64,000 bases of DNA from an uncultured virus (IMG/VR IMGVR_UViG_3300034019_000699) (IMGVR_UViG_3300034019_000699), one strand, 5' to 3'; shown: positions 25,727 to 40,974, counted from the first letter of the stretch. Notes: generated by a model from the letters alone, not told the origin. A program made the numbers and translations.

Positions 25727-25732
25727 CGCTTT

Positions 25733-26183: not shown

Positions 26184-26271
26184 AGTCCTCCTCCATTATC
26201 TATTGTATCAAAAAGTAGGGGAAAGGGCAACCCCACGCTGCCCCTCCCCTGTAGGTCTAGGAGACCCAGTC

Positions 26272-26637
26272 CTAGACCTGCTCAACTAAAACTTTTGGAG
26301 CATATGCATTAATAAAGTCAACCCAGCCAATAACATTTCTATTATTGTCAATGATAGTTTCTTTAGCAATGTCGATGACTACCGTCGTTTCCCCCAGGTC
26401 ATAGTTACTCCCAGTGATTGAATAAATTCCAAACCCTGTCTCATCAAGAATAGAATCTTGCATAAGGTAACTAATCATCATACGATTGAAGTAAGCATAG
26501 TCTGACCACCTAGGCTTTGCATGCTGCAGGGCCATTGCTAGGTCCCGCTGCCATTCAGTCTCACCCCAGTGGCTATATAGGACCACATGGGCCTCATCTT
26601 CAACATCCTTAAATACAAAATTAATACGGGCTCCCAT
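26272..26637 (-). CDS. conserved phage hypothetical protein
   Basis: MGARINF...LYSHWG; AGGAG SD. Confidence 0.7.
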   Translation of the reverse strand: MGARINFVFKDVEDEAHVVLYSHWGETEWQRDLAMALQHAKPRWSDYAYFNRMMISYLMQDSILDETGFGIYSITGSNYDLGETTVVIDIAKETIIDNNRNVIGWVDFINAYAPKVLVEQV

Positions 26638-26782
26638 TAGTCATTCTCCTTAAAAGATACGATTGATAGTTGGCTTAGTACTTCATTGAGCAGCGCTTCT
26701 TCATCTTCTGCCTCTGCTTCATATCTAAATGTCATGTAATCGCCTGTTGGCTCAAAGATAACTTCTACTTTAAATTCTGACA

Positions 26783-27106
26783 TTATTCAATCTCACCTTC
26801 GAAATCAATAACTACCTTGCTAACTCGTCCGTCCTCGTTGAGTTGAACATAGACAGGGTAAAGTCCGTCACCATAGCCTGTGTTGAATACAACAGCAGAA
26901 CCGATACCAAGTTCGCCATAAGAATTAGAAATGGTTGTGGCGCAAGCGCCGTGATAAGAATAGTCGCCTTGCTTTCCGTCTAACTCGAATGCTTCTCCGT
27001 CATTGGTATTCCATTGGTCAAGGTAGCAGGGGTCGCCTACCATTGCTTGTCCGCTATCTACCGCAAATGAACCTGCTAATACAAGTTCGTCTAATACATA
27101 CTTCAT
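26783..27106 (-). CDS. DUF4241-like protein
   Basis: VDSGQAMVGDPCY...TGYGDGLYPVY. Confidence 0.7.
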   Translation of the reverse strand: MKYVLDELVLAGSFAVDSGQAMVGDPCYLDQWNTNDGEAFELDGKQGDYSYHGACATTISNSYGELGIGSAVVFNTGYGDGLYPVYVQLNEDGRVSKVVIDFEGEIE

Positions 27107-27558
27107 TGGGTCTCCTTTATTGTTAGTCCTACTAAGGTCATTTCATCAAGTGTAGCACATTCTGTGCATTTTTCCAAATCGTGGTCTTGGAAGGAATCTC
27201 TAATAAGATTATCAGGGTCTTCCAGTTCAGCATGGCAGTTCTCACAGAAGTACCAGTTATAGCCAATACGGATTTGAATGGTAGTGTCAGGTGGGCACGG
27301 TACCTCAGTAATGAAGTATCCTAATCTATTTACAAATCCCCAGCCAGACCAGATATAGGAGCCACCGTCATCGCCATCCCCATACATCCAGATTTTGTCA
27401 GGGGATTGAGATTTAACAAACTCTACCTCATCACCATATGTCTCAAACATAATGCCACCCTCCCCATTATCAAATGAGGCATTTGGGTCTATATGATTAG
27501 TGATTGGTTTGTATGTAGTTAGCCATTCATCAAATTCCATTTCAATAAACTTATCCAT
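27103..27558 (-). CDS. hypothetical protein with C-terminal CxxC pairs
   Basis: FETYG...GFVNRLGYFITE; CENC, CTEC. Confidence 0.65.
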   Translation of the reverse strand: MDKFIEMEFDEWLTTYKPITNHIDPNASFDNGEGGIMFETYGDEVEFVKSQSPDKIWMYGDGDDGGSYIWSGWGFVNRLGYFITEVPCPPDTTIQIRIGYNWYFCENCHAELEDPDNLIRDSFQDHDLEKCTECATLDEMTLVGLTIKETQ

Positions 27559-27823
27559 TTTTCTTAGCCCTATCACTAATAGCAAAGGATAGTTGATATG
27601 TTAGGGCATATACCCATGACAGAGCGTCCATTTGGCCTTCCCAGTATTTACGCTCCATAGAATCCATTGCCTCTTCTGTATATTCTTCTTGCTCAACAGC
27701 GGCATTGTATTCTTTTTCAGCCTCAAGCATGAGGTTCTTAAGTTCACCATGGAGGATGTCTGTGCCTGATTCTCCAAGGTCAATGAGTTTCTGTAGTCGT
27801 GGTTCTAGGTCTGTTGTCATCAT
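27551..27823 (-). CDS. hypothetical acidic protein
   Basis: ATG 6 nt after TATACT of the 27830 promoter. Confidence 0.65.
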   Translation of the reverse strand: MMTTDLEPRLQKLIDLGESGTDILHGELKNLMLEAEKEYNAAVEQEEYTEEAMDSMERKYWEGQMDALSWVYALTYQLSFAISDRAKKNG

Positions 27824-28029
27824 TACTCTAGTATACCCTCGGCCACTGACAAAATGTGGGAGGTGGCAATCATCTGTCCATTTAGAGATATATCCTCTAT
27901 CTCCAAGTCCCAGTATTCATCTGAGTTCATATCTTCAATTAGTATCATTTCAGATTTGAGTTTCTCAGAATCTTGCTCCAGCGATAGGAGGTGCAGTTTC
28001 ATGTATTCTTTAAGTGTGTTTAGGTCCAT
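27823..28029 (-). CDS. hypothetical acidic protein
   Basis: 68-aa ORF coupled to its neighbours. Confidence 0.55.
   Translation of the reverse strand: MDLNTLKEYMKLHLLSLEQDSEKLKSEMILIEDMNSDEYWDLEIEDISLNGQMIATSHILSVAEGILE
27830..27851 (-). promoter_or_regulatory. RecA-NDp/PafBC-type promoter
   Basis: TGTCAG-TGGCCGAGGG-TATACT. Confidence 0.7.
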
Positions 28030-28032
28030 ATA

Positions 28033-28272
28033 TTAATTATAGGGGTTTGAGTTGATTTTTACAACTTGGCGGGGTGTGACTTTAATCACAGGTTCATAGT
28101 CAGGGGTAGGATCCTCATCTACATGTGTAACAGTAGCATCCCATTTGCTTAATAGGATTACATGAGATGATGCATGGCAAATGCAGGCGGGATCAATCTG
28201 AGGCTCAACTGATGCAGTAATCTCTATAAGAGCATCACAGTCAGTACATAGATAAGTAAACTTAGTCCACAT
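28033..28272 (-). CDS. small zinc-ribbon-like protein
   Basis: YLCTDCD...CIC. Confidence 0.55.
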   Translation of the reverse strand: MWTKFTYLCTDCDALIEITASVEPQIDPACICHASSHVILLSKWDATVTHVDEDPTPDYEPVIKVTPRQVVKINSNPYN

Positions 28273-28509
28273 TAGCAGTCCTCACAAGTAGTATCGCCAT
28301 AGGTAATAGATACTCCACAGTCAGAGCACCAGGATTCATCATACATTCCCATTACTCACCCCAATACTTTATAATAGTATTCATAGTCATATGGAGATTA
28401 CAATCGCAATCCCCACCATTCATGTTCTCCATGAATTCAAAGTGCGATAGGTTGTCCTCATAGATTTCTGTTACCAGTTCATCTATGGTGTATGGTTTGT
28501 GGGTTGTGG

Positions 28510-28740
28510 TCATACTGTACAAGACTCCTGACATATGTGATAGGCTTTTAGAGATGATACTGTCAATTCTAACATTTCGTCAGGGTATCTGTCAAGCACC
28601 CAATTAAGTGCTTCACCAGCAGTATTGAAGTCAGAGGCAGTGCTACTTTCTCCATAGCCTTGTATAGTTGCTTCCCAGCAGTCAACGCCACCAGGGGAGC
28701 AGGAGTATTCCATTTCGTATATTTCTACATTTAGGGTCAT
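28510..28740 (-). CDS. hypothetical protein
   Basis: Leaderless behind TTGACA-N17-CATAAT (28747-28775). Confidence 0.6.
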   Translation of the reverse strand: MTLNVEIYEMEYSCSPGGVDCWEATIQGYGESSTASDFNTAGEALNWVLDRYPDEMLELTVSSLKAYHICQESCTV

Positions 28741-28900
28741 GTATTAATTATGACAGGAATCCTGGGAAATGTCAAGTCTATCGTAAAGATTTTTTGGTTT
28801 GATATTTTTGGGGATTTTTAATAGTCTTCGTAAAGATTTTTTAATTTGACATTTTTATGTCCGATATGTCTGAATTGTCCACACGTGCGGATTTTCTTTG

Positions 28901-28976
28901 CGATTCCGATGGGATTTGAACCCACGATCTCTACAGTGACAGTGTAGCGATTTAAACCAGACTAATCTACGGAACC
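28901..28976 (-). tRNA. tRNA-Asp(GTC)
   Basis: GGTTCCG...CTACA-CTGTCAC-TGTAG...GGTTCAAATCC...CGGAATCG. Confidence 0.9.
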
Positions 28977-28983
28977 AAATGGT

Positions 28984-29010
28984 GAGCAGTTTTTATTCTT
29001 ACTCAGGAAT
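28984..29010 (-). ncRNA. pseudoknot motif, copy 3
   Basis: ATTC-CTGAGTAA-GAAT-AAAAAC-TGCTC. Confidence 0.6.
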
Positions 29011-29018
29011 TTTTTTAA

Positions 29019-30035
29019 TTATGCAATCTGCAAAACATTTTGCACAACTTTTAGCAAACGATTCTTTTCTGCATTGATAGCAGGGTCAAATCCGCTTGCG
29101 CTTGCAAGGATAGATTCGTTAGAACCACCACGAGCAGAACGATACCAATCAAGGCGTTCAGTTAGTGCATTGAAAGCACCCCACGCATTACCAGCAATCA
29201 TTCCATTGAATTCGCCAGTGTAGATGTCATTGATAACATCAACCTTGTTTTCCCATTTCTTGAAAGCACCCTTAGAATCTTTTTCAGGCTTAGGGTATGC
29301 AGCAAGAATGATGTTGTTGAAATCTTGTGCGGTGATTTCTTTTTGAATCATAGCGTTAGCCATAACATCAAAAGAGTCCATGTACTTATGGGCAAGACCC
29401 AAAGTTTCACGAGCAACGGCAACCTTACCAGAAGCGGTCTGAGTGTGGCGAATCTTGAAAGATTGCTTGACACCATTCTTTTTCTTAGTAGTGTTTAGTG
29501 CAAGGTTAAGAGTGTTAGCGCATACAACACGAACAGGTGTGATACTTGCTTGAATAGCGATTGAGCCATCGTGTGATGTATTGATAAGTAGATAAGTCTT
29601 GACCTTATCTGCAACACCGCTAGGGTCTAAGATTGTTTCACGCTCTAGTGCTAATGCACCGAATACGACACGACCACCCTTGATTGAACCAGCGGTTTCC
29701 CAACGACCTCCGCCATCGAGAATGTTATCACCGAATGAAAATAAATCTTCATTCTGCATAACATGATAACGCTCACCAACGACACCAAGAATGTCGGTCT
29801 GAGAGTTGTCAGTAGGATTGGTACGCAATACATACTGATAGTTTTTGTCACTTGTTAAGTGTGATGGGGTTTCCAAATCCTCAAGACGAACATTCCAATT
29901 AGAAAGGCTTGCTAGGTCTAGCATTTCTTTTGTTGTTTTTTCCTCTGTGAATACGGTACCCAATCCATGCCAAGCGGGTTCACGAAATGATGCGAATGAA
30001 GCCTTACCATTTTGTGTTTCGATTTCATGTGCCAT
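29019..30035 (-). CDS. DUF932 family protein
   Basis: MAHEIE...PAWHGLG...ETAGSIKGG...NTSHDGS...TPVRVVCANTL...IRHT; AAAAAGGAG SD. Confidence 0.88.
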   Translation of the reverse strand: MAHEIETQNGKASFASFREPAWHGLGTVFTEEKTTKEMLDLASLSNWNVRLEDLETPSHLTSDKNYQYVLRTNPTDNSQTDILGVVGERYHVMQNEDLFSFGDNILDGGGRWETAGSIKGGRVVFGALALERETILDPSGVADKVKTYLLINTSHDGSIAIQASITPVRVVCANTLNLALNTTKKKNGVKQSFKIRHTQTASGKVAVARETLGLAHKYMDSFDVMANAMIQKEITAQDFNNIILAAYPKPEKDSKGAFKKWENKVDVINDIYTGEFNGMIAGNAWGAFNALTERLDWYRSARGGSNESILASASGFDPAINAEKNRLLKVVQNVLQIA

Positions 30036-30066
30036 GAGTTTTCTCCTTTTTTGTTGTTGAATTTTA

Positions 30067-30088
30067 AGTATAGCAGGACGGGCTGACA
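30067..30088 (-). promoter_or_regulatory. RecA-NDp/PafBC-type promoter
   Basis: TGTCAG-CCCGTCCTGC-TATACT. Confidence 0.7.
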
Positions 30089-30113
30089 AATGCAAATCGG
30101 GATAGTTAAACAT

Positions 30114-30196
30114 GGGACAAATTGGACATTCCTTAATGTGATTAAATTCACATGATCGTAAAAGTTATCCACAGACTTATCCACAGGCCCCACGTG
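30114..30196. promoter_or_regulatory. operator block: GGACA-N4-GGACA, CRP-type site, two DnaA boxes, CACGTG
   Basis: TGTGATTAAATTCACA 30137; TTATCCACA 30165 and 30177; CACGTG 30191. Confidence 0.7.
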
Positions 30197-30220
30197 TAAA
30201 TTTTGCGGGAATTAAAAGTT

Positions 30221-30247
30221 GAGCAGTTTTAAAACATGCTCAGGTTT
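30221..30247 (-). ncRNA. pseudoknot motif, copy 4
   Basis: AAAC-CTGAGCAT-GTTT-TAAAAC-TGCTC. Confidence 0.6.
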
Positions 30248-30262
30248 ATTAGTAGCCCCCTA

Positions 30263-30691
30263 CTAAATATCTATACGGTCCACACTGGATGATAACCATG
30301 TGACATCATCTGAATTGTAAGATACAGTATCGAAATCAATATCATGAATTAGATTCTGTGCACTTTCTTCATCTCGTGCATTGACTGTAATTGAATAAAG
30401 AACTGTGACTTCCAATTCAAATTCTTTTGTTAACTCAAATCCGCAAATATCTGCAATTGCTTGTGCAGTCTCTTCTGAAATGGTACCGTCGTCCAAGTTT
30501 TCTAAGGTCCACTCTTGCATTTCATTACGCATACGAGAGCGCTCTGCAGCCTCACCATATGAGCGCTGAGTTACTTTTTGAATGTGCTCTTCAAGTTGTT
30601 GAATGCGTTCTTTGTTTTGTACTAGAGTAGTTTCTAAAAACTCTCGTGTCATATAGTGTGTGTCTGTTGCTACTGTGATTGGTTGGTCCAT
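30263..30691 (-). CDS. hypothetical coiled-coil/acidic protein
   Basis: AGAGG SD; follows the 30723 promoter. Confidence 0.7.
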   Translation of the reverse strand: MDQPITVATDTHYMTREFLETTLVQNKERIQQLEEHIQKVTQRSYGEAAERSRMRNEMQEWTLENLDDGTISEETAQAIADICGFELTKEFELEVTVLYSITVNARDEESAQNLIHDIDFDTVSYNSDDVTWLSSSVDRIDI

Positions 30692-30722
30692 GGGGGCCTC
30701 TTTCTGTTAGTTGGTTAATTCA

Positions 30723-30744
30723 ATTGTACTGGGTGCCACTGACA
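30723..30744 (-). promoter_or_regulatory. RecA-NDp/PafBC-type promoter
   Basis: TGTCAG-TGGCACCCAG-TACAAT. Confidence 0.7.
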
Positions 30745-30765
30745 TTTGTCAAGATCCCTTGCGGG

Positions 30766-30792
30766 GAGTAGTTTATACACATACTCAGGTGT
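30766..30792 (-). ncRNA. pseudoknot motif, copy 5
   Basis: ACAC-CTGAGTAT-GTGT-ATAAAC-TACTC. Confidence 0.6.
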
Positions 30793-30847
30793 CTTATCTC
30801 AGGCATACCTACACATCAAGGCGTAGGGCTTAGCAGAGATAAATTAT

Positions 30848-31273
30848 TTAGAGATAACGAGCAACCGCATTGTAAGTGCTGGTGCTAACTACTTCCTCAT
30901 CTGTCATCTTGAGAATACGAATTGCGTTAGACATTTCATCTACCATCTCGTTGTAGGTGTGTCTGTGGATTTGCTCAAAATTACGCTCAGGTTCAGCAGG
31001 AAAGTTTGTTCCGCTTTCTACCTTGATGTCAAAATCAACATTGAGAGTTTTGTTCCACTCACGATAGTTCGTGCGTAGATTTTCTGCCTTTGAGATTTGA
31101 CTAATAGCATACTTTACTAATTGTTCGTTCCAAGCCTTTTGTGCTTCTTGGAACTTTGCTTCGTTCTCATCTTGTGTTTTGTAGTTAGCCTCTAGTTCTG
31201 CTAACTTAGTTTCTAGTGCGTTGATAACTCTCTGTGTAGGTATCTTTACGCTAATTGCTTTTCCTCTTGCCAT
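30848..31273 (-). CDS. conserved hypothetical coiled-coil protein
   Basis: AAAGGA SD; 141 aa. Confidence 0.7.
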   Translation of the reverse strand: MARGKAISVKIPTQRVINALETKLAELEANYKTQDENEAKFQEAQKAWNEQLVKYAISQISKAENLRTNYREWNKTLNVDFDIKVESGTNFPAEPERNFEQIHRHTYNEMVDEMSNAIRILKMTDEEVVSTSTYNAVARYL

Positions 31274-31314
31274 TGGGTCTGTTTCCTTTTCTTTGTTTTG
31301 TTAGGGGGTTGGTT

Positions 31315-31350
31315 GAGCAGTTTATTTATTATCTCATGCTCAGGAGATAA
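31315..31350 (-). ncRNA. pseudoknot motif, copy 6
   Basis: TTATCTC-CTGAGCAT-GAGATAA-TAAATAAAC-TGCTC. Confidence 0.62.
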
Positions 31351-31358
31351 TTGTCAAA

Positions 31359-31523
31359 CTACTTGGCTGTCCAAGTTGTGTATCGTGGCTTGCCATTTAC
31401 ATCTAACTTGACACGAACATTTCCGTTAGCCTGTGGTGTGATTTCTGTGATGATACCACTTACCTTTGACTTTTGAGTTGTGTAGGTGTCGCCTACTTTG
31501 TAAGTTGCGGTTGCTACTGACAT
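31359..31523 (-). CDS. small basic beta-rich protein (54 aa, absent from the ORF track)
   Basis: MSVATATYKVGDTYTTQKSKVSGII...; GAAGGA SD; TTGACA-N17-CATAAT upstream. Confidence 0.7.
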   Translation of the reverse strand: MSVATATYKVGDTYTTQKSKVSGIITEITPQANGNVRVKLDVNGKPRYTTWTAK

Positions 31524-31621
31524 TTGTTTCCTTCTTTCTGTTAGGGTTTTGCTTACTATCTAATTATGACATTTCTTGGGAAAAATGTCAAGTCTAATTT
31601 GAGATTTCTCAAATAGTGAGA

Positions 31622-31792
31622 TTACTTGCTGGTCTTGACCATAGCCAAACGGCGTGAGCCATTTGCTAGAACTAGACTAACTCTGGTAAGTTTATTAGAC
31701 ATTGGCTCAAAACTAGCAATACGACCTGTAATGCCTGTCTTGCTTGTCGTGAATAAATCACCAATTTGGTATTGGTATCCTCCAAGGGTCAT
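31622..31792 (-). CDS. small basic protein, paralog of 31359-31523 (56 aa, absent from the ORF track)
   Basis: MTLGGYQYQIGDLFTTSKTGITGRI...; same leader TAGATAGTAAGCAAAACCC. Confidence 0.7.
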   Translation of the reverse strand: MTLGGYQYQIGDLFTTSKTGITGRIASFEPMSNKLTRVSLVLANGSRRLAMVKTSK

Positions 31793-32026
31793 TGTTCTGC
31801 CTTTCTGTTGTGGGGTTTTGCTTACTATCTAATTCTAGCAGAAAAATGTCAAAAATACCAATTCAGCGGAGGATTTGGGGTGTGTCCTTAATCACATCTT
31901 AAAGGCGTGTCGTGACTTGACAGATCAAAGATTTTGCCCACGTGCCCTTTCGGGATTACTACTGATACAAAAATAAAATAAATAAAAAAAATGCTAAGAA
32001 CATCCATTGTGTTGAATTCATTTATC

Positions 32027-32749
32027 TCATTTCTTACTCGCAGAAAAAATTATGTCACTCTTAGAGTATACACAAAGTGAGCAAGAAACGCAAGCGCTTC
32101 CATTTGTTGAGATAAGCGGAATTTGTTTATTATTCTCAGGACACTTAGCAGCAGGCTTACCAATCATTTCTTTTACATCTGCTTGACCAATAGCAAAATT
32201 CTTAGCAAGGTATGCCATGCGTACGCCACTATTAATTTTTAGGTCTACTGCGGTTTTTACATTCTCGCTATCTGCAGAAAAGTATAGGCTTAGATTATCA
32301 ATACCCTTGAGCATTAGAGCAGCACTTGCTACACGAGTATAAACCCAAAATTGAATTTCAGGATGATTAAGTATTACATGCTTCCATGCGAATGTGTAGG
32401 TATCGTTAAAAAAGTCTCCGTCCCAATGAATACGGAATAGTTTAGGAGCGTCTTTCTTATTGCAGTCTGCAACAAAATCAACAATCATTTCTTCAAGCAA
32501 TGCTTTCATAGTATCATGGTCTGCGTCTTTAAGCAATGCCCAATTGTGTAATAGATTAGTTTTTACTGCGGGGAATAGTCTTTCGAGTTTTCCTGCGTAG
32601 CATACGCTTTCACATACGCTAGTGGCACCAGGGCACGAGAAAGCCTTTCCAGCAGGTAATCCAAATGTGTTTGCGATACTTGCTTGTTTTCCATTTTTTG
32701 TGACAAGGTTAGCCACCTTCCTATCTTTAGAGCGTTTTAGTTTAGTCAT
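32027..32749 (-). CDS. GP88-like protein (Cys-motif, radical-SAM-like)
   Basis: FGLPAG..SCPGAT..C...CYA; FRIHWDGDF; FWVYTR; C..C..C. Confidence 0.75.
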   Translation of the reverse strand: MTKLKRSKDRKVANLVTKNGKQASIANTFGLPAGKAFSCPGATSVCESVCYAGKLERLFPAVKTNLLHNWALLKDADHDTMKALLEEMIVDFVADCNKKDAPKLFRIHWDGDFFNDTYTFAWKHVILNHPEIQFWVYTRVASAALMLKGIDNLSLYFSADSENVKTAVDLKINSGVRMAYLAKNFAIGQADVKEMIGKPAAKCPENNKQIPLISTNGSACVSCSLCVYSKSDIIFSASKK

Positions 32750-32771
32750 GGGGTTCTACTTTCTTTCTTTA

Positions 32772-32793
32772 ATTATAGCGGAGGGGTCTGACA
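32772..32793 (-). promoter_or_regulatory. RecA-NDp/PafBC-type promoter
   Basis: TGTCAG-ACCCCTCCGC-TATAAT. Confidence 0.7.
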
Positions 32794-32944
32794 ATTTTTT
32801 TCTATTGTAGGTTTTCTTTGACGGAACACTTGAGGCAGCATTAGATCTACGCAACTCCATAAGTCTGCGTAATTCCTCGGGTGTTTTCTTTTGTGTCATA
32901 AACTAATCTTAGCATACATGGGATAAAAATGTCAAATCTTAAAA

Positions 32945-32971
32945 TGTGATAAAGATCACACGACGCACGTG
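32945..32971. promoter_or_regulatory. CRP-type palindrome and CACGTG upstream of a TTGACA promoter
   Basis: TGTGATAAAGATCACA 32945; CACGTG 32966. Confidence 0.65.
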
Positions 32972-33010
32972 GGCATTTTTATGCGGGGAAGTGCATAAAA
33001 ATACTTTTAG

Positions 33011-33253
33011 TTATTCTATTGTTTCAATAAAAACATACAACGGAATTAAATCAGTGTAAGAATAATTGGCAAAGTCTAATTCATCAAATTCATTCTTAGT
33101 CTGAATACTCCAATTATCTGCAGTTGAATCACTTTCAATAAACATAACTTCAACAATGTCATCACCGACTTTAATTAAATCGCCAATCATTAATTGATCT
33201 GGCTTGAGTTCATCTGCAAAGATTAGTTCCATGCTATTTATTGTATCAGACAT
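33011..33253 (-). CDS. hypothetical acidic protein
   Basis: GGAGG SD. Confidence 0.6.
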   Translation of the reverse strand: MSDTINSMELIFADELKPDQLMIGDLIKVGDDIVEVMFIESDSTADNWSIQTKNEFDELDFANYSYTDLIPLYVFIETIE

Positions 33254-33471
33254 TTTACTTTCCTCCTACTTTTCCGTCACGATAAAAAATCTTGGTGTGC
33301 ATTTTGCCATTAGGCTCTGAAAAATTGTAGGTTGCATAGTCATCTGCAAATCCCCAATCCACAATTTTATTCCACTCGGTCACTGCGCTAATTGCGTCTG
33401 AATAACGACCAACCCAATGAGGTGAAGTATCATTATCATAGGTTGCAGTAATTGCGTATGAGTATTCCATT

Positions 33472-33768
33472 TTAGTATTCCCTTTCAATAAGCCACGCAT
33501 TTAGGTGGTGTTGTTCAATTATTGCATAAGCGGGGGCAGTAGTCAAACCCTTATAGGTTATTCCTTCGGGCATAGGTATTTCCAAGTCCCATAGTCCTGC
33601 GTCATTTACTGCGTCAATAGCCTCAATACATACCGATACCATAGACTTAGGCACTGGCGGGTAGTGATTAGCAGATAAGTGAATACCTATCTGAGTTTCT
33701 AAATCAAGATGAATACCAAGATTATCAAGTGTTCCGTCTGCCATTTCTGTTGCAAAATTACTTCCCAT
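33472..33768 (-). CDS. hypothetical protein
   Basis: HLSANHYPPVP...IIEQHHLNAWL. Confidence 0.65.
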   Translation of the reverse strand: MGSNFATEMADGTLDNLGIHLDLETQIGIHLSANHYPPVPKSMVSVCIEAIDAVNDAGLWDLEIPMPEGITYKGLTTAPAYAIIEQHHLNAWLIEREY

Positions 33769-34001
33769 TATCGTGCTTCTCCGCTCATTAGTAGTTCAGG
33801 CTCACTTAGTAGCCCATTATCCCAAATAACACTTCCGTCATAGTCTAATAGTAATTCGTAGGGATTACACTCGCAAGTTTCTGAGTCAAAATCCTCGCCA
33901 TTTCCCCAATACAAATTACCTTGACCATTACAAGCATTACAATTCTGTATCGCTCTTAGTGCGTATTCTAATTTATCCATTTTTTCCTTCTTTCTGTTCA
34001 T
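33768..34001 (-). CDS. small zinc-finger protein (CxxCxGxG...CxC)
   Basis: CNACNGQG...TCECN. Confidence 0.6.
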   Translation of the reverse strand: MNRKKEKMDKLEYALRAIQNCNACNGQGNLYWGNGEDFDSETCECNPYELLLDYDGSVIWDNGLLSEPELLMSGEAR

Positions 34002-34007
34002 ACTGAA

Positions 34008-34029
34008 ATCCTATCAGATAGGGCTGACA
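34008..34029 (-). promoter_or_regulatory. RecA-NDp/PafBC-type promoter
   Basis: TGTCAG-CCCTATCTGA-TAGGAT. Confidence 0.7.
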
Positions 34030-34050
34030 TTTTCAACCCTACCCAACCAC

Positions 34051-34548
34051 TCACCAAGACGAATGGTACGAAAAGGACAAATTGGACAATTCGGGTAGAG
34101 CAAGAATACGCTCTAATTGTTCAATAGTATTCTCTAGGTCACGCCAATACCATTGATCGATATCTGTTCCACCAAAGAAAAATCCTTCTTGTGGTGGCAA
34201 TAGGCTAGGGTCTTTATTTTCTAAAGAGTGCTTACAAATCGCAAGCAATTCTATTAATTTATCTTGTGATACATAGTAGTCACCGCAGTCGTCAATTCCT
34301 TTTTGTACATTTTTGACAAACCAATTATGAATCTGATTAGCCTTGCGCCAATAAGCACAAGTCACTTCTACGCTTGCGCCATAGATATCTGTTGCGACAT
34401 TGGATAATTGTGTTAATTCCATTAGGTTGTTGAATTGCGGATATACCGCTTCAGGTGAGTCATAAGATAATTCGTCATTATCTCTTAGTGCGTTCCAATT
34501 CACTTTTTCCAAGTGTTTCTTGGCTAGTAAGTACATATCTAATCCCAT
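34051..34548 (-). CDS. conserved phage protein (MGLDMY...YWRKANQIHNWF)
   Basis: Motifs typical of a widespread uncharacterised phage family; GAAGG SD. Confidence 0.75.
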   Translation of the reverse strand: MGLDMYLLAKKHLEKVNWNALRDNDELSYDSPEAVYPQFNNLMELTQLSNVATDIYGASVEVTCAYWRKANQIHNWFVKNVQKGIDDCGDYYVSQDKLIELLAICKHSLENKDPSLLPPQEGFFFGGTDIDQWYWRDLENTIEQLERILALPELSNLSFSYHSSW

Positions 34549-34576
34549 TGGATTACCTTCTTTCTTTTAGGCTTCT

Positions 34577-34687
34577 AGCCTATCATTTCCTACTGACAAA
34601 ATCAAACCGACACGCCGTAAAATCTGGGGGAATATTAAAATGTGTCGTAAATCACCCTGTGTATAACCCTGTGGATAACCCCACGTG
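34577..34687 (-). promoter_or_regulatory. PafBC-type promoter plus operator block
   Basis: TGTCAG-TAGGAAATGA-TAGGCT 34577-34598; CGACACGCC 34608; CRP-like 34641; DnaA boxes 34658 and 34670; CACGTG 34682. Confidence 0.72.
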
Positions 34688-34695
34688 AAATTTTT

Positions 34696-34722
34696 GAGCA
34701 GTTTTAGATCATGCTCAGGATT
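34696..34722 (-). ncRNA. pseudoknot motif, copy 7
   Basis: ATC-CTGAGCAT-GAT-CTAAAAC-TGCTC. Confidence 0.6.
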
Positions 34723-34826
34723 TGAAAACTAGAATCCGTTTTCTTTTATGTCTTTAATTGCTAATCGCAATAAATAAAATGTTGAAATTAGCAAAGCAAG
34801 TTGCACAAGTGTTGTTAAAAATCTGC

Positions 34827-35027
34827 TCACGCATTTACCTCAATTCCTTTATAGCAAGCAAGAGCAAATCTATTTGCGTCAAATCTTGGATTATCAGTTT
34901 CAAACATTAGAGAAAATTCATCTACCAAATCAGCAAATAAAATTTCTCCTTGCTCATCAAAAACAGAAGTAGCAAAGTAATTGCTAAGAATTTCAGCAGT
35001 TGCGACATAGTCTTTTCGTGTCATCAT
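34827..35027 (-). CDS. hypothetical protein (TRKDY...DNPRFD..RF family)
   Basis: Similar motif at the C-terminus of 60971-61426 (SKEDY...DNWRFNADRF). Confidence 0.65.
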   Translation of the reverse strand: MMTRKDYVATAEILSNYFATSVFDEQGEILFADLVDEFSLMFETDNPRFDANRFALACYKGIEVNA

Positions 35028-35115
35028 TTATGAGCACACTCGCTTTCTATTTCGTGTCCAAATTCATCTACTAATTCCTCGTAGATTTCGTCTAAGTATT
35101 CTAAGTAATCGCTCA

Positions 35116-35322
35116 TTATTCAGCCACCTTTAGAGTAGCCCAAGAATTGCCCTTATTGACTTCATCAAGGACAGGACCGAGAGCAGGCGCAAGCAAATCT
35201 TTTAGCATACTTTCAAGAAAGTGAATTTGAATTTCACTATCTAATTCTAATAGTTGCTTAGCAGTTGGATTATTTTCATCTACCTCAGTTATGAAGTGGA
35301 GAGAGTGTTTAATTGTTTTCAT
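35116..35322 (-). CDS. hypothetical protein
   Basis: AGGA SD. Confidence 0.6.
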   Translation of the reverse strand: MKTIKHSLHFITEVDENNPTAKQLLELDSEIQIHFLESMLKDLLAPALGPVLDEVNKGNSWATLKVAE

Positions 35323-35341
35323 TTATTTTATTTCCTATTCT

Positions 35342-35533
35342 TTAATTTGAGGGGATAAGTGTGCCACGAAGTGTGCCACGAATTGAGAGAGTGTCGCAAG
35401 ACATTTTGACCGCAACGCCTACTGGTAATTGAGTAGGATAAGTTGAGATAAATTGAGCAACCGCACCTTTAGAGGGCAGGCTAATTTTTTTAGTAGAACC
35501 ATTAAAGGTTTCTAGTGTTATAGTGTAAGTCAT
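35342..35533 (-). CDS. hypothetical protein, paralog of 37793-37984
   Basis: TITLETFNGSTK...LPVGVAV; AAAGGAAG SD. Confidence 0.65.
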   Translation of the reverse strand: MTYTITLETFNGSTKKISLPSKGAVAQFISTYPTQLPVGVAVKMSCDTLSIRGTLRGTLIPSN

Positions 35534-35565
35534 TTTGACTTCCTTTCGTTTTTAGGTATAAGACT

Positions 35566-35587
35566 ATCTTATACTATGGGGCTGACA
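35566..35587 (-). promoter_or_regulatory. RecA-NDp/PafBC-type promoter
   Basis: TGTCAG-CCCCATAGTA-TAAGAT. Confidence 0.7.
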
Positions 35588-35588
35588 A

Positions 35589-35801
35589 TTAGTCTGCGTT
35601 TTTTACCGCTAGATAGCGATAGGTATCCTTTAGGTTAAATATTGAGGGATAGTGTGGGCGAACCTGAACCCGATAAGTATCACAATTAGCATACCAAACC
35701 TTATCGGTTTTTTCTGCGTCGATTATTTCGCCATTTATTGAGCGAGAATTGTAAGTCTTGCCAATTAGCAGACTTTCTACATTATAGACATTTGCTGACA
35801 T
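35589..35801 (-). CDS. hypothetical protein, paralog of 36458-36658
   Basis: YNVESLLIGKTY..RS..NGEI. Confidence 0.65.
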   Translation of the reverse strand: MSANVYNVESLLIGKTYNSRSINGEIIDAEKTDKVWYANCDTYRVQVRPHYPSIFNLKDTYRYLAVKNAD

Positions 35802-35832
35802 AGTGTCACTTCCTTTTTTTCTTTAGATAGTA

Positions 35833-36053
35833 AGTATAGCATTTTTGGCTGACATTATCAAATCCAAATTCGGACATTTCCGACATTTTGAATGTGATAC
35901 TCATCACACCGATTTTGCTATTTATTTAATTGTATAAGAGAATACTACCAGATAAATCTCAAAAAGTCAAGGCGACACGCCGTAAATGCGAGATTTATTT
36001 ATGTGACCTTAAACACATTTTGCTTGTGGATAACCTGTGGATAAGTGCACGTG
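35833..36053 (-). promoter_or_regulatory. PafBC-type promoter plus double operator block
   Basis: TGTCAG-CCAAAAATGC-TATACT 35833-35854; GGACA-N4-CGACA about 35872; CRP-type 35893 and 36002; CGACACGCC 35973; DnaA boxes 36025 and 36036; CACGTG 36048. Confidence 0.72.
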
Positions 36054-36269
36054 CAAAATTTGCAAAGTTTTTCTCTGCAATTTTGTTTTTATTTATTTTA
36101 TTTCTTTACACTTAAGTAGTCGCTAATATTTACATACACAATGTATGCAACATAGGCTAATACTGAAACAAAAATAATTTTCATTTATGATCTCCAATTT
36201 CATCTAGCAATTCCCAAAGTATTGGCTCTAATTCTTTAGCAACCAAATCTAATTTATCTTGTAAGTTTT

Positions 36270-36458
36270 TCATAGTGGCAAAATCTCTTTTCCATAGTAT
36301 CCAACTGCTTCAACTAAGTTAATTACACTTTTGTATTCATTACAATTAAAGCAAATTCTATTTTCTTTATTCATAGTGGTTGAGCAATAAACGCAGATAT
36401 TATCTTGAAGGTTAAATCCTAACGCTTCAATTTCATTAAGGGACATAGATATTTTCAT
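36270..36458 (-). CDS. small zinc-ribbon protein
   Basis: CVYC...CFNC. Confidence 0.55.
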   Translation of the reverse strand: MKISMSLNEIEALGFNLQDNICVYCSTTMNKENRICFNCNEYKSVINLVEAVGYYGKEILPL

Positions 36459-36658
36459 TAGTTATCCTCAACCTTCACGCTAATAGTAGCCCAATTATTG
36501 CCATTAAAGCGAATAGCAAAAGCCTTATAGCCTTCGGGAGTATAGACATCGCTTCTCTCAGTAGAGTAGTTAATTTCACCATTAAGGTGTTTTCTCACAA
36601 GAGAGCGAGGATAGTATTGCTGACCATAGAGCAGGTCATTTATTGAATAAGTTTTCAT
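36458..36658 (-). CDS. hypothetical protein
   Basis: GAAAGG SD; follows the 36692 promoter. Confidence 0.65.
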   Translation of the reverse strand: MKTYSINDLLYGQQYYPRSLVRKHLNGEINYSTERSDVYTPEGYKAFAIRFNGNNWATISVKVEDN

Positions 36659-36691
36659 TTAAGTTATTACCTTTCTTTTCTTTACTTAGTA

Positions 36692-36713
36692 AGTCTATCA
36701 GAAGCCTCTGACA
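36692..36713 (-). promoter_or_regulatory. RecA-NDp/PafBC-type promoter
   Basis: TGTCAG-AGGCTTCTGA-TAGACT. Confidence 0.7.
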
Positions 36714-36857
36714 TTTCCTTACACTTATTAGGGTTATCCCACCAAGGGAAGCCCTCATGGTAGGTAGCAGGGGCAAGGACTACCTGACCGCAAGGGCATA
36801 GGTTCATCATGCCTTTAGGGTAGTCGTGTATAGTAGCGAACCTATTCCAAATACTCA

Positions 36858-37064
36858 TTAGTTAGCAACCTGACAAGAACCGCTAAGAGATTTCCAAGCA
36901 GACCAACCGCTAAGGCGGTCTGGGTCTTCTACCCAATAAGAGGTTATGTCTAATTCGCAATTAGAGCAAGTCGCATAGCGGTCATACTCATCACTTACGA
37001 TAGATGATTTAATTGCTTCGTGTGTAGAGAAGCCTAGTTTTTTTAGTAGTGTTTGTTCGTTCAT
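36858..37064 (-). CDS. small Cys/Trp protein, paralog of 37476-37655
   Basis: CSNCELDITSYWVEDPDRLSGWSAW. Confidence 0.65.
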   Translation of the reverse strand: MNEQTLLKKLGFSTHEAIKSSIVSDEYDRYATCSNCELDITSYWVEDPDRLSGWSAWKSLSGSCQVAN

Positions 37065-37098
37065 TTTAGAACCAACCTTTCTTTTTCTTTATGTAGCA

Positions 37099-37120
37099 AG
37101 TCTAGCAGAGGGGTCTGACA
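37099..37120 (-). promoter_or_regulatory. RecA-NDp/PafBC-type promoter
   Basis: TGTCAG-ACCCCTCTGC-TAGACT. Confidence 0.7.
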
Positions 37121-37130
37121 AATCGGGGCA

Positions 37131-37184
37131 TTTATTCGCTAGGCTCACTGTGATTTATCTCACATTTATTTGCTAGGCTCACTG
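37131..37184. repeat. 20-bp direct repeat flanking a CRP-type palindrome
   Basis: TTTATTCGCTAGGCTCACTG (37131) and TTTATTTGCTAGGCTCACTG (37165). Confidence 0.8.
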
Positions 37185-37221
37185 CCCGATTTATCCCTTA
37201 TTTAGTTTTTCTTACTCCGTA

Positions 37222-37427
37222 AGTCTAACATAAAAATCTCAAAAAAGCAAATCGACACGCCGTACTACAAGTGTGTTTCTTATCACATTAGTTATCAACA
37301 GCCTGTGGATAAGTCCACGTGTGACACGTGCAAATTCGGACATTATGGACATGTGATTAGTATCACAAAAATAGTTTTCCGACACGCCCGAGAAACAGGT
37401 CAAAATGTCAGTGGTCTGTGTTAGACT
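37222..37427. promoter_or_regulatory. divergent control hub between the two early arms
   Basis: CGACACGCC 37253 and 37380; CRP-type 37272 and 37352; DnaA boxes 37292 (1 mismatch) and 37304; CACGTG 37316 and 37325; GGACA-N4-GGACA 37338; + strand TGTCAG-TGGTCTGTGT-TAGACT 37406-37427. Confidence 0.72.
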
Positions 37428-37475
37428 TACAGTAGTAAGAAAATGAGAAACTCTCATTAAGAAAGGTGGTCTCAA

Positions 37476-37655
37476 ATGACTACACTAACAATAACAAAAT
37501 GCGTAGAGCATAAGCCTATGCTATCCGCTATCTCCAATGTAGGAGATGAGCAATTCACTTTCTGTATGGATTGTGAAAATAACATAGAGCGTTGGTATAA
37601 CGATACCGACCCTGAAAGACTACCAATGTGGTCAGATTGGAGTGTATCTCTATGA
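37476..37655 (+). CDS. small Cys/Trp protein (59 aa, absent from the ORF track)
   Basis: GAAAGGTGG SD; CMDCENNIERWYNDTDPERLPMWSDW. Confidence 0.7.
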   Translation: MTTLTITKCVEHKPMLSAISNVGDEQFTFCMDCENNIERWYNDTDPERLPMWSDWSVSL

Positions 37656-37792
37656 TAAACTCAGTTAAAACTATTGATTGCTCTACCTGTTATGGTAGAG
37701 GCTACATATTTTTCGGGGACAATGATGATTGTGCCATTGAAACATGTGATTGCGTATTAAATGATGAACTAAATGTAGATTGGATTAACTAA
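37652..37792 (+). CDS. small zinc-finger protein, paralog of 33768-34001 (absent from the ORF track)
   Basis: ATGA overlap; CSTCYGRGYIFFGDNDDCAIETCDC. Confidence 0.65.
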   Translation: MINSVKTIDCSTCYGRGYIFFGDNDDCAIETCDCVLNDELNVDWIN

Positions 37793-37984
37793 ATGATAAA
37801 TGTAACACTAACAACAACAACAGGCTCCACTAAGGGCATGAGGTTTGATACTAAGAATGATGTCCTGCTATTCATTGAGAAGATGTCCGATACACTGCCT
37901 ATCGGTACAGCAGTGAATATTGACGCACCACTCATTGGAATACATAGTGGGTGGATACAGGGTAAGCGTCTACAAAACACATAG
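37793..37984 (+). CDS. hypothetical protein
   Basis: VTLTTTTGSTK...LPIGTAV. Confidence 0.65.
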   Translation: MINVTLTTTTGSTKGMRFDTKNDVLLFIEKMSDTLPIGTAVNIDAPLIGIHSGWIQGKRLQNT

Positions 37985-38001
37985 CCTTATCTATTAAAAG
38001 A

Positions 38002-38032
38002 TTAGTGGGTCTATGGGCTCACTATTTTTTTT
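38002..38032 (+). terminator. intrinsic terminator
   Basis: TAGTGGGTC-TATG-GGCTCACTA plus T8. Confidence 0.7.
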
Positions 38033-38136
38033 GATCATTTTTTGTTTATTTATGTATCATACATCTAAACAAAATATTCCAATTTACTCTAATTAAGAAA
38101 TCTGAAAACAAATCTGAATTATGATATACTTAAACC

Positions 38137-38709
38137 ATGAGAAAACAATACACACGAGTCCAATACGACGAAAACGGTTTAAAGCAATGCACAAATTGCC
38201 AGGAATACAAAGAGACATCTAACTTCCATAAATACTCTAAGGCTCAAGATAGTTTGAAACCTTGGTGTAAGGTTTGTGTAAGAGAATACGACTTGGCAGA
38301 AGATGATCCAAAAAGGGTTATGCCTAGAAAAAAGCAGGGGGAATTAATTCATTGTCGTAGATGTGAAAAATATCTAGATAAATCTAACTTCTGGCGTGGC
38401 TCAACATATTGTCGTCCATGCAAGGTTTATATAGGTATAAACTCTAACCTTAGAAATAAAAACCTGACTATAGAAAAATATTCAGAATTAGAAAAATCTC
38501 AAAATGGGGTTTGTAAAATTTGCGGGAATACAGATTATAAGCGTTTATCCGTAGACCATGATCATGCATGCTGTCCTGGAGAAAAAACTTGTGGAAACTG
38601 CACAAGAGGCTTATTGTGCTCTAGATGCAATAGAGCCCTAGGCTCTGTTAATGATGATGTAAAACTGTTACAAACTATGATACGATATTTAAATGGGGAT
38701 ATTAAATAA
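38137..38709 (+). CDS. endonuclease VII-domain protein with N-terminal zinc ribbons
   Basis: QNGVCKIC...LSVDHDH...RGLLCSRCNRALG. Confidence 0.88.
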   Translation: MRKQYTRVQYDENGLKQCTNCQEYKETSNFHKYSKAQDSLKPWCKVCVREYDLAEDDPKRVMPRKKQGELIHCRRCEKYLDKSNFWRGSTYCRPCKVYIGINSNLRNKNLTIEKYSELEKSQNGVCKICGNTDYKRLSVDHDHACCPGEKTCGNCTRGLLCSRCNRALGSVNDDVKLLQTMIRYLNGDIK

Positions 38710-38866
38710 CCTAGAAAATGCCTGTGGGGTTTATAGGGTTTTTCAGAATTGTGCTATAATAAGATCATGACAGAAGAAACCACATCTTTAAAACTTTGCT
38801 GTGATGCATGCACATGCACCAACTCTCACAGTTCTAAGCCACCAGTAGAAGAAGTAGAGTAATTCC

Positions 38867-39064
38867 ATGGGCATAGGGTTTTTAGATAACCTAGAAAATG
38901 CCTGGGATGAAAATCTATTTCTGGAATCAAAACCAATACCTGAAACAGACAACATGGGTAGAGAAAAGTTTTGGGAAGATCTAGGAAGACCAGAATATGA
39001 AAACCTGGCTGTAAAAATATTTTCAGAAACTTGTTGCAAAGATTGTAGTTGCAAAAATGGATAG
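38867..39064 (+). CDS. hypothetical protein
   Basis: 65 aa, CCKDCSC. Confidence 0.5.
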   Translation: MGIGFLDNLENAWDENLFLESKPIPETDNMGREKFWEDLGRPEYENLAVKIFSETCCKDCSCKNG

Positions 39065-39470
39065 CGATCAACAACAACTAACTATAGAGCAAGCACAAGC
39101 AATTTTATTATTTCAGATTGAGCAAAAACTCAGGGTACATATAGCAAAACAAGTTGAGAACAAATTCCACGGAATGTATCATGACGCATCACACGTAATA
39201 GCACAATACATACGTAACATGGTCTAAAAGTATTTAGATCCGTCTGACTCTTCTAAGTTTCCAGGGCAAGAAAATTAATCTTCAACTCTATCCAACTCCC
39301 ACATTCTAATATCTATAAACCCAATTCTAGATTTATCTGCTACTTCTTGGGAATCAGCCTCTATTGCAATACGAACACTTGTCTCTATATCAATTCCAGA
39401 GTTAAGTTTAGTGCCAGCATTCTTTTCATACATTTCCTCTATTACAGATAATATTGGTTTGTAATAATAC

Positions 39471-39662
39471 TTAGGCAATTGCTCCACCCTCTTTAAGTTT
39501 GTCATAAATGTTTGACATCATAAAACCAAGACTAGCCTGGCTCTGCTCAATTTGTTTTTCAAGATCTGCTGCATTTAATCCAGCCTGAAGACCCATTGCT
39601 CGGTTATCCTCATTAATGCTATTTAGCATAATATTTACTGCTTCGTCTTTTGTCATACCCAT
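39471..39662 (-). CDS. hypothetical protein
   Basis: Coupled to the upstream ORF; AAAAGGA SD. Confidence 0.55.
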   Translation of the reverse strand: MGMTKDEAVNIMLNSINEDNRAMGLQAGLNAADLEKQIEQSQASLGFMMSNIYDKLKEGGAIA

Positions 39663-40423: not shown

Positions 40424-40457
40424 TTTTGTTAAATATACCCCTTATAATAATCTTATT

Positions 40458-40927: not shown

Positions 40928-40974
40928 GGCTAATACCTTGGTTTGTCCTATACCCACCGACCTTGGTATTAGTC
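40928..40974 (+). ncRNA. candidate small stem-closed RNA
   Basis: TGGTATAAT upstream; GGCTAATACC/GGTATTAGTC stem. Confidence 0.4.

Follow-up and report, generated by a model that had tools for sequence, protein, structure and literature searches.

Between positions 28,855 and 37,427, the 64,000-nucleotide DNA stretch of the uncultured virus IMGVR_UViG_3300034019_000699 (the window, taken at its full length) contains a series of composite intergenic cassettes in which an RNA pseudoknot, sites resembling those of host regulators, and promoters follow one another in a recurrent order. On balance we think it probable, though not by a wide measure, that these are early regulatory cassettes read by the DnaA, a CRP-family protein, and the PafBC of the host, or by proteins like them, so that early transcription would depend on the state of the host. 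The original prediction, made for this region from its sequence, had proposed that such host-factor-like sites stand in a fixed order. All of its motif classes are found where it had placed them, each above shuffle expectation, and the four full blocks do hold the proposed order on the minus strand, but a strictly fixed motif grammar fails comparison with relatives. The noteworthy new components are a class of RNA pseudoknot, phased CRP-type sites accompanied by paired DnaA boxes, and promoters of the PafBC type.

In the arrangement that we propose, a cassette would start where the preceding transcription unit ends, with a 36-nt H-type pseudoknot marking that 3' end, and would end in one or two promoters of either a -35/-10 type or a -26-element type. 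Operators would lie in between: distally two consensus DnaA boxes separated by roughly one turn of the helix, a CRP-family palindrome that keeps to one helix face relative to the -10, and TGTC-containing elements abutting the promoter. Reading of these sites by the three host regulators, or by proteins like them, would tie early transcription to host state. The order of the motifs would then be a product of operator-promoter geometry and of common descent by duplication and recombination, not a free-standing "grammar."

The motifs are referred to below by letter, where H is the pseudoknot, E is CACGTG, D is the DnaA box, C is the CRP-type palindrome, G is CGACACGCC, K is the TGTCC repeat, S is a -35/-10 promoter, and P is a TGTCAG-N10-TAnnnT promoter. 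Expected counts come from dinucleotide shuffles of the window, and all motif classes exceed them. CACGTG occurs 9 times against 4.1 expected, with 8 copies within 28882-37330 and the ninth at 25721. The DnaA box is the 9-mer TTATCCACA, which has 11 perfect copies in the window; six of these fall within the studied region (30165, 30177, 34670, 36025, 36036, and 37304), and one-mismatch partners at 34658 and 37292 stand 11-12 bp from a perfect box. Allowing at most one mismatch, there are 7 copies of CGACACGCC (1.7 expected), the five perfect ones all within 31904-37388; 9 of TGTGA-N6-TCACA (3.0 expected), all between 28075 and 37367; and 16 of GGACA-N4-GGACA (2.1 expected). Three of the last, at 41477-41508, are unrelated to the cassettes, being GGA-CAA-ACA coding repeats in a collagen-like tail-fiber gene; the Gly-X-Y repeat of this tail-fiber-like gene (41330-41998) produces tandem GGACA matches. 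The -26-type promoter, searched as TGTCRG-N10-TANNNT, is found 16 times against 1.18 expected, with 11 of the 16 on the minus strand at 27830-37120 and one on the plus strand at 37406. The motifs are confined to the early-gene region, and in a complete relative of 111,870 bp a single stretch of about 16 kb accounts for 14 of the 16 P, 13 of the 15 C, 10 of the 13 perfect DnaA boxes, and 4 of the 5 G. An unbiased search for enriched 8-mers recovered words of the pseudoknot and of CGACACGC, in a list dominated by tRNA fragments and other repeats; DnaA and CRP words are absent among the 70 enriched 8-mers listed. The full cassettes and the rightward arm are laid out as follows.

30036..30262, minus strand: cassette 1, upstream of the DUF932 gene; order from 30244 to 30067 H-E-D-D-C-K-P, with pseudoknot 30216-30251, CACGTG 30191-30196, DnaA boxes 30177-30185 and 30165-30173, CRP-type site 30137-30152, TGTCC-N4-TGTCC 30115-30128, and -26-type promoter 30067-30088.
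34549..34727, minus strand: cassette 2, upstream of a 165-aa gene; order from 34719 to 34577 H-E-D-D-(c)-G-P, with pseudoknot 34691-34726, CACGTG 34682-34687, DnaA boxes 34670-34678 and 34658-34666 (the second being TTATACACA), a two-mismatch CRP-type site at about 34639-34654, CGACACGCC 34608-34616, and promoter TTGATT plus TGTCAG-N10-TAGGCT 34577-34598.
35802..36097, minus strand: cassette 3, a double cassette; order from 36053 to 35779 E-D-D-C-G-S-C-K-P, with CACGTG 36048-36053, DnaA boxes 36036-36044 and 36025-36033, CRP-type site 36002-36017, CGACACGCC 35973-35981 (2 bp off the -35), sigma-70-type promoter 35942-35970, second CRP-type site 35893-35908, TGTCC repeat 35872-35885, and -26-type promoter 35833-35854.
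37065..37321, minus strand: cassette 4, the leftward arm of a divergent region; order from 37321 to 37099 E-D-D-C-G-(S)-C-P, with CACGTG 37316-37321, an inverted DnaA-box pair 37304-37312 and 37292-37300 (the second being TTATCAACA), CRP-type site 37272-37287, CGACACGCC 37253-37261, promoter TTGCTT-17-TAGACT 37222-37250, second CRP-type site 37149-37164 with the repeat CAGTGAGCCTAGC on both flanks, and -26-type promoter 37099-37120.
37325..37475, plus strand: rightward arm; order E-K-C-G-P ahead of a gene start at 37476, with CACGTG 37325-37330, GGACA-N4-GGACA 37338-37351, CRP-type site 37352-37367, CGACACGCC 37380-37388, and -26-type promoter TGTCAGTGG-N7-TAGACT 37406-37427.

The rightward arm had been described as a mirrored cassette at 37325-37427. 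Its E, K, C, G, and P elements are indeed present, but it lacks DnaA boxes, its K comes ahead of C, and neither K nor G is inverted relative to the leftward cassettes, so that the arm falls short of a true mirror. Blocks 3 and 4 have a common promoter-spacer sequence (TTTTTGAGATTT) and are thus paralogues rather than independent instances. It had also been said that the sequence between motifs is not conserved, and in orthologous cassettes the spacers do drift. Around the CRP-type site at 37149-37164 runs a direct repeat, CAGTGAGCCTAGC(A/G)AATAAATG (37130-37195), that is kept in orthologues, and the word TTACG(A/G) precedes CGACACGCC in blocks 2-4.

Relatives provide the main check on order. 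The DUF932 gene has relatives on at least 417 IMG/VR stretches, and the best 80 of these, at 90-100% protein identity, were used; the locus comparisons cover 77 relatives' loci and the window. Among 371 distinct clusters of at least three motif hits, D stands before C in 209 cases against 17, C before K in 73 against 7, and K before P in 78 against 0, with H and E first. The element G floats, standing before C in 105 clusters and after it in 51, and following D in 77 and preceding it in 50. The parts recur in relatives, with an order that is fixed only in part. Of the 51 unique sequences upstream of DUF932 orthologues, 49 retain H, 49 P, and 48 K, but only 36 retain C, 20 G, and 7 E, and one DnaA box or more is left in 24, which indicates that the promoter-proximal half is stable and the distal half is swapped between alternative modules. 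CACGTG does not belong to the core as the original prediction had it. As it occurs in only 7 of these 51 sequences, has none of its 7 copies in the complete 111,870-bp relative within the cassette region, and is not kept in orthologues, it is a lineage-specific addition. In place of the window phage's CACGTG, relatives show other GC-rich boxes (e.g., CCCGTTCGGG and GGGCGCCC).

Conservation within orthologous cassettes falls on the motifs. Cassette 4, compared across 11 distinct orthologues, preserves its DnaA boxes, CGACACGCC, the promoter hexamers, and both halves of each CRP-type site, but neither the six bases between those halves nor CACGTG. In 4 distinct orthologues of cassette 3, identity is 0.87 in motif columns vs 0.62 elsewhere. 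The position of the CRP-type site is likewise constrained, as its center lies 42, 52, 62-63, or 72-73 bp from the -10, with a minority at 57-58. These distances differ by about 10.3 bp, and across 287 distinct contexts, which are not independent of one another, the Rayleigh R reaches a peak of 0.57 at a period of 10-10.5 bp. The eight CRP sites of the window, counted by hand, lie at 41.5, 51.5, 52.5, 52.5, 62.5, 62.5, 62.5, and 72.5. In S promoters, CGACACGCC is positioned 2 bp off the -35; in P promoters, the TGTCC repeat precedes the -10 by about 40-50 bp. The kept motifs, the phasing of the CRP-type site, and the promoter-adjacent elements are marks of operators that work with RNA polymerase.

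The genes around the cassettes form a hyperplastic early region that is a mosaic among relatives. Those at 26-38.5 kb are present in anywhere from 0 to 77 of the 77 relatives, and alignments end at gene borders. Pieces of cassettes are kept where their neighbors are not, with segment 37100-37250 in 36-41 of 77 relatives and 35900-36050 in 20-28, and the genes between them (36270-37064) in 0-6. It is possible, but quite unlikely in our estimation, that the cassettes serve mainly as recombination linkers for swapping small genes, with an order that is inherited and has little regulatory meaning. The gene-by-gene mosaic, the survival of cassette pieces beside lost genes, and the paralogy of blocks 3 and 4 all fit such a role, and a modular shuffling of this kind is described in two papers on the PeSL cassettes of T4-type phages (PMC2839356, PMC4122927). 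A linker would not be expected to concentrate its conservation on motifs and half-sites or to hold a CRP-type site in helical phase, and although alignment ends do pile up at cassettes, they also do so at plain gene junctions that have no cassette, e.g., 33250. Linker and regulatory roles are in any case compatible.

Contigs from RNA libraries touch on the same question. Four runs yielded contigs within 28700-37700 that are 90-99% alike over parts of the region, such as 29000-30200 and 31360-31645; contigs of this kind carry no information on starts, ends, strand, or level, and could stem from carried-over DNA. Joints in these contigs, such as those from 30142 to 34670 and from 35535 to 37126, land in cassettes, and as they come from relatives at a minimum likeness of 90% with short sides, they are a weak hint of cassette-to-cassette junctions. 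In three lake RNA libraries, word depth along this stretch peaks in the contigs over 31360-31645, contig depth being a poor measure of expression.

Two promoter classes serve the cassettes, the ordinary -35/-10 type and the -26-element type, TGTCAG-N10-TAnnnT. The latter resembles a class known from Actinobacteria. Muller et al. 2021 (PMC8635444) give the PafBC motif as tGTCgg(N10)tA(N3)T, with the 5' part at -23 to -28, where it replaces the -35, and describe PafBC promoters as -35-less, and a review (PMC8223512) extends the RecA-NDp promoter type beyond mycobacteria to other Actinobacteria. The P promoters of the window share the core GTC and the exact spacing with the motif given in PMC8635444. 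The two differ in the fifth base, G in that motif and A in the phage, and in their setting, which is ahead of DNA-repair genes in the former and ahead of early genes in the phage. A search of titles and abstract openings, which had subscription journals outside its coverage and took in part of the papers on PafBC and phages, found none about PafBC-type promoters in a phage. By our own reading, TGTCAGTG is present in 5 of the 16 window sites of the -26 type, a word that fits the older RecA-NDp consensus. Together with the matches to the DnaA box and the CRP-type palindrome, the geometry of the P promoters supports the claim that the sites are host-factor-like. CGACACGCC contains GACAC, the short target motif of WhiA; a link to cell division through this regulator is a putative one.

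The pseudoknot is the best-supported single element of the cassettes. The original prediction had noted it as a 3' pseudoknot in two blocks, and both covariation and strand specificity bear this out. A pattern built on the conserved loop and tail, with stem 1 outside the pattern, picks out 209 distinct instances across the window and the 77 loci; four matches lie in the window and six in the complete relative. For covariation, 140 sequences were drawn, including the window's four, and six of odd length were excluded to leave an alignment of 134. On the structure .....(((..[[[[[.))).............]]]]]..... 99.3% of cells are paired, a level that 0 of 500 shuffles reach. One pair of stem 1 is AU in 60 sequences, UA in 34, GC in 25, and CG in 12. 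In stem 2, one pair is GC in 117, AU in 11, and GU in 6, and another is CG in 95 and UG in 39; the G-U pairs point to RNA, not DNA. The pattern is found in 233 distinct contexts on the transcribed strand vs 1 match on the opposite strand. About half of these pseudoknots lie 0-19 nt 3' of a stop codon, and in 152 of the 233 a promoter-like sequence stands between the pseudoknot and the next gene. We infer that the element may form or protect 3' ends.

Small H-type pseudoknots with an A-rich third loop are known from preQ1-I riboswitches and from the gene 32 leader of phage T4. The phage element is like these in its size of about 34-36 nt, a stem 1 of 3-5 bp, a loop 1 of 2 nt, a 5-bp stem 2 formed with the loop, and an A-rich loop 3. 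Unlike them, it is found just 3' of stop codons rather than in leaders, and it has its own loop CUGAG(C/U)A, several copies per genome, and no Rfam family. Rfam 15 matched only a tRNA across 22000-42000 at E<=1, and its sole match in 30195-30275 was a chance miRNA at E=4.3. The pseudoknot at 28979-29014 stops 2 nt short of a tRNA-Asp gene (28900-28976), and in several relatives the pseudoknot directly precedes the apparent 5' end of a tRNA gene. Processing of the tRNA 5' end would leave the pseudoknot as the 3' end of the upstream RNA.

Which proteins read the cassettes is best approached through what the phage encodes. Profile searches of five relatives rated 100% complete (108-118 kb) found a WYL domain, Bac_DnaA_C (DnaA domain IV), and HTH_Crp_2 absent from 5/5, and nothing above cut-off for Sigma70_r4 in 5/5. 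As none of the five encodes a recognizable DnaA, CRP, WYL, or sigma domain, host factors would be the readers of these sites. The rather unlikely alternative is that phage early proteins of unrecognized families bind the cassettes and shut off or re-time the early promoters, in the manner of the temporal programs of large lytic phages, with the likeness to host sites being coincidence or mimicry. The region does encode small Cys-rich early proteins that belong to no family, and by profile search most early-region proteins of the window are without a Pfam family. Dozens of such family-less small proteins, several of them Cys-rich, offer candidates, and the TGTC elements, CACGTG, CATTACGA, and CAGTGAGCC have no assignable host factor. 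The lineage-specific CACGTG is also what a fast-evolving phage factor-site pair would be expected to leave. Phage binders of this kind do not account for TTATCCACA, which is invariant in the window and relatives and equals the universal DnaA consensus, nor for a P promoter that matches a host promoter class in both sequence and exact spacing, and the lack of DnaA-, CRP-, WYL-, or sigma-like domains in all five complete relatives counts against them as well.

The original prediction had offered two meanings for the cassettes, a sensor of several host inputs and a decoy that titrates host regulators. The multi-input sensor is plausible, although its control over commitment to infection is unsupported, and the decoy is weaker. 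In the latter, which we consider improbable, replicating phage DNA would soak up host regulators, for example to block initiation of host replication, and effects on promoters would be secondary. Perfect DnaA boxes number 11 in 64 kb and 13 in the complete relative, all in the non-coding DNA of the region that would be active first. Against this, the sites stand in fixed relation to promoters, many orthologous cassettes have lost their DnaA boxes, and a few dozen sites per genome make a modest sink unless copy number is high. A literature search on phage DnaA-box titration found nothing relevant.

The DnaA boxes could in principle act in DNA entry, through membrane-DnaA anchoring and a pause in injection, or as replication origins, instead of in transcription; we give this very little credence. 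It draws on a report that 25 T5-like phages have 8 specifically arranged DnaA boxes in their first-step-transfer region (10.1101/866236), and on a separate four-box cluster at 24303-24958 of the window, next to six CATTACGA repeats. The cassette boxes, however, are paired ahead of promoters over 7 kb instead of forming a single array within a long stretch of untranslated DNA, they have no evident AT-rich unwinding element next to them, and the 99-bp end overlap of the complete relative resembles an assembly overlap. An oriC-type origin within 28855-37427 was rejected on the pairing of the boxes ahead of promoters and the lack of an evident unwinding element.

The cluster to the left is of another make. 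Of its perfect DnaA boxes, at 24303, 24905, 24938, and 24950, two abut extended -10 promoters (TGTGGATAAC-TGCTATAAT). The six CATTACGA repeats are on the minus strand at 24695-25665, accompanied by repeated AAACCTT words; CATTACGA occurs 11 times in the window against 0.9 expected. This control region (24303-24958 and 24695-25665) could be of a second kind, either an origin or another promoter class.

Several observations weigh against reading by host DnaA, CRP-family protein, and PafBC. Counts over the relatives are inflated by shared descent and are phylogenetically non-independent. The distal modules turn over, as two DnaA boxes are kept in only 10 of the 51 DUF932-upstream sequences, and the distance from DnaA box to -10, counted by hand, shows no phasing. 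Positions of the CRP-type site are about 3 bp off the classical class I positions of E. coli. About half of the window's -26-type promoters have a -35-like TTGnnn 17-18 bp upstream of the -10 (e.g., the TTGnnn at 30096, 30752, 34036, and 35861) and the rest have none, and the match to the PafBC family is to this extent incomplete. Paired DnaA boxes 12 bp apart are a generic element, found on at least 119 IMG/VR stretches; 80 of these were examined, with G+C of 0.29-0.62, and another cassette motif is present in 34 of the 80. As many unrelated contigs have it, the pair alone is not diagnostic. Factors are assigned by consensus, and a PafBC and a CRP are presumed in the host. Finally, the small Cys-rich early proteins could be the true binders.

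If host reading of the cassettes is accepted, a more specific version can be put forward tentatively, as a possibility well short of probable. The phage, as a lytic one, would wire its whole early program to three host sensors at once, DnaA for replication, CRP for cAMP or energy, and PafBC for single-stranded DNA (ssDNA), and would mark the end of each early transcript with a pseudoknot of a new, self-contained class. Its -35-less promoters would be fired through PafBC sigma adaptation, with the phage's own incoming or replicating DNA supplying the ssDNA.

Beyond the full cassettes, the partial versions that had been predicted exist at 28858-28887, 31881-31944, and 32945-32971. These and further elements and genes of the window are listed here.

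28741..29018, minus strand: 3' end of the DUF932 unit, with pseudoknot 28979-29014, tRNA-Asp 28900-28976, CACGTG 28882-28887 overlapped by TTGTCCACA 28875-28883, GGACA-like repeats 28858-28880, two copies of AAAAAATCTTTACGA, and sigma-70-type promoter 28747-28775.
31793..32026, minus strand: partial cassette; order from 31944 E-G-C, with CACGTG 31939-31944, CGACACGCC in opposite orientation 31904-31912, CRP-type site 31881-31896, and promoter TTGGTA-18-TAGAAT 31832-31861.
32900..33010, minus strand: partial cassette with CACGTG 32966-32971, CRP-type site 32945-32960, and sigma-70-type promoter 32906-32935.
31310..31351, minus strand: pseudoknot copy with loop 3 longer by 6 nt, overlapping a promoter-like TTGACA-18-GATAAT 31328-31357.
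30692..30847, minus strand: short intergenic unit with a degenerate pseudoknot-like CCTGAG...ACTACTCC, a CCC-GCAA-GGG tetraloop hairpin, and TTGACA-18-TACAAT with TGTCAGTGG in the spacer, 30723-30752.
27830..27851, minus strand: -26-type promoter TGTCAGTGG-N7-TATACT, beyond the range of the original prediction.
32772..32793, minus strand: -26-type promoter ahead of the GP88-family gene.
34008..34029, minus strand: -26-type promoter with GGACAAATTGGACA upstream at 34075-34088.
35566..35587, minus strand: -26-type promoter in a 55-bp gap ahead of a 63-aa gene.
29019-30035: DUF932 gene, by family match.
32027-32749: GP88-family gene, by family match.
38137-38709: endonuclease VII gene, by family match.
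7429-7710: WhiB gene, by family match.

In the DUF932-unit 3' end, the repeat reads AAAAAATCTTTACGA(A/T)AGACT twice at 28790-28850, upstream of the promoter at 28747-28775. The CCC-GCAA-GGG hairpin (a GNRA tetraloop, 30755-30775) comes after the pseudoknot-like element and before the TTGACA. Paralogous genes of 54 and 56 aa (31359-31792) each have their own promoter.

The window, with a G+C of about 37-38%, divides in this region into a leftward array of small genes (23.4-37.1 kb) and a rightward gene set starting at 37476. It is also rich in tail-fiber-like genes and 2OG-Fe(II) oxygenases, at least 10 paralogues of the latter lying at 4724-5299, 16211-17646, 22897-23481, 46552-47169, and 58091-63739. 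A 187-aa protein (2045-2608) has a weak match to a proteasome subunit (PF00227, 24.7 bits against a cut-off of 22.4), a curious match in that the phage promoters resemble those of a regulator encoded in the Pup-proteasome locus.

The window belongs to a lineage of freshwater (lake) actinophages of about 110 kb that encode WhiB, and the earlier guess of a freshwater actinophage was right. WhiB in the window and in 5/5 of the complete relatives, the GP88 and DUF932 families, and tblastn matches to Streptomyces phages indicate Actinobacteria as the host phylum. The DUF932 protein found 566 phage records by tblastn, with the best, from Streptomyces phages, at 51-52% identity, and none of 50,697 phage records matched the region by megablast, which leaves it without a cultured close relative. 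Logan contigs contain the region almost whole in 14 DNA runs from lake water, each under its own study code, 5 of the 14 possibly being the source of the window's DNA. The phage WhiB, searched against 185,579 species genomes, gave 12 loci, the best of which are short contigs in metagenome-assembled genomes (MAGs) labeled with unrelated taxa; these short contigs are probably mis-binned phage DNA and so give no host. In a sample of one phylum, 197 of 201 genomes yielded a RecA, and TGTCNG-N10-TANNNT lay upstream of recA in 1 of 20 (the smallest genomes among the matches listed), a result that is uninformative and has no bearing on PafBC in the real host. The low-GC genomes among those 20 are unlike the expected host group.

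The original prediction had held that no such ordered grammar was described in a phage, which is too strong given the PeSL cassettes and the DnaA-box series of T5-like phages. By its resemblance to both, the architecture is not without precedent. DnaA boxes also form clusters away from the origin in bacteria, where DnaA acts as a transcription factor at promoters; the phage cassettes are similar in having boxes upstream of promoters and away from the origin, but those of bacteria serve cellular genes, and the literature consulted showed no phage program of this kind. In T5-like phages, one report describes an ordered series of 8 DnaA boxes and proposes an injection stop, which is itself a hypothesis (Davison 2020, 10.1101/866236). 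The T5-like series is similar in its consensus host DnaA boxes, conserved arrangement, and location in non-coding DNA of the earliest-expressed region, and different in being a single 8-box array, set in a long untranslated segment of the terminal repeat, where the actinophage has pairs ahead of many promoters. The PeSL cassettes of T4-type phages are terminator/promoter modules repeated through hyperplastic regions, according to the two papers on them (Arbiol et al. 2010, PMC2839356; Comeau et al. 2014, PMC4122927). Each combines a strong sigma-70-like early promoter with a transcription-terminating stem-loop, and indels and replacements arise by recombination between them; the actinophage cassettes have promoter-like elements and a pseudoknot. 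The two systems have in common small composite modules among small genes of unknown function, modules that are kept as the intervening genes are swapped, and early promoters read by host RNA polymerase. PeSL cassettes belong to another host phylum and phage lineage, the window phage being a whiB/GP88/DUF932 actinophage, and have a plain stem-loop terminator in place of the H-type pseudoknot. The actinophage cassettes additionally hold operators (DnaA boxes, a CRP-type site, and TGTC elements) and a second promoter class with a -26 element.

The cassettes would thereby extend the idea of promoter-terminator cassettes as gene-shuffling engines from T4-type phages of Gram-negative hosts to actinophages. 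They also make predictions, namely activation of the host PafBC type, binding of DnaA and a CRP-family protein upstream, and formation or protection of 3' ends by the pseudoknot. The lineage is common in lakes, and because low-GC actinobacteria of fresh water, like the phages that infect them, are difficult to culture, a cis-regulatory logic that can be read from sequence is a rare handle on how infection is controlled in these bacteria.

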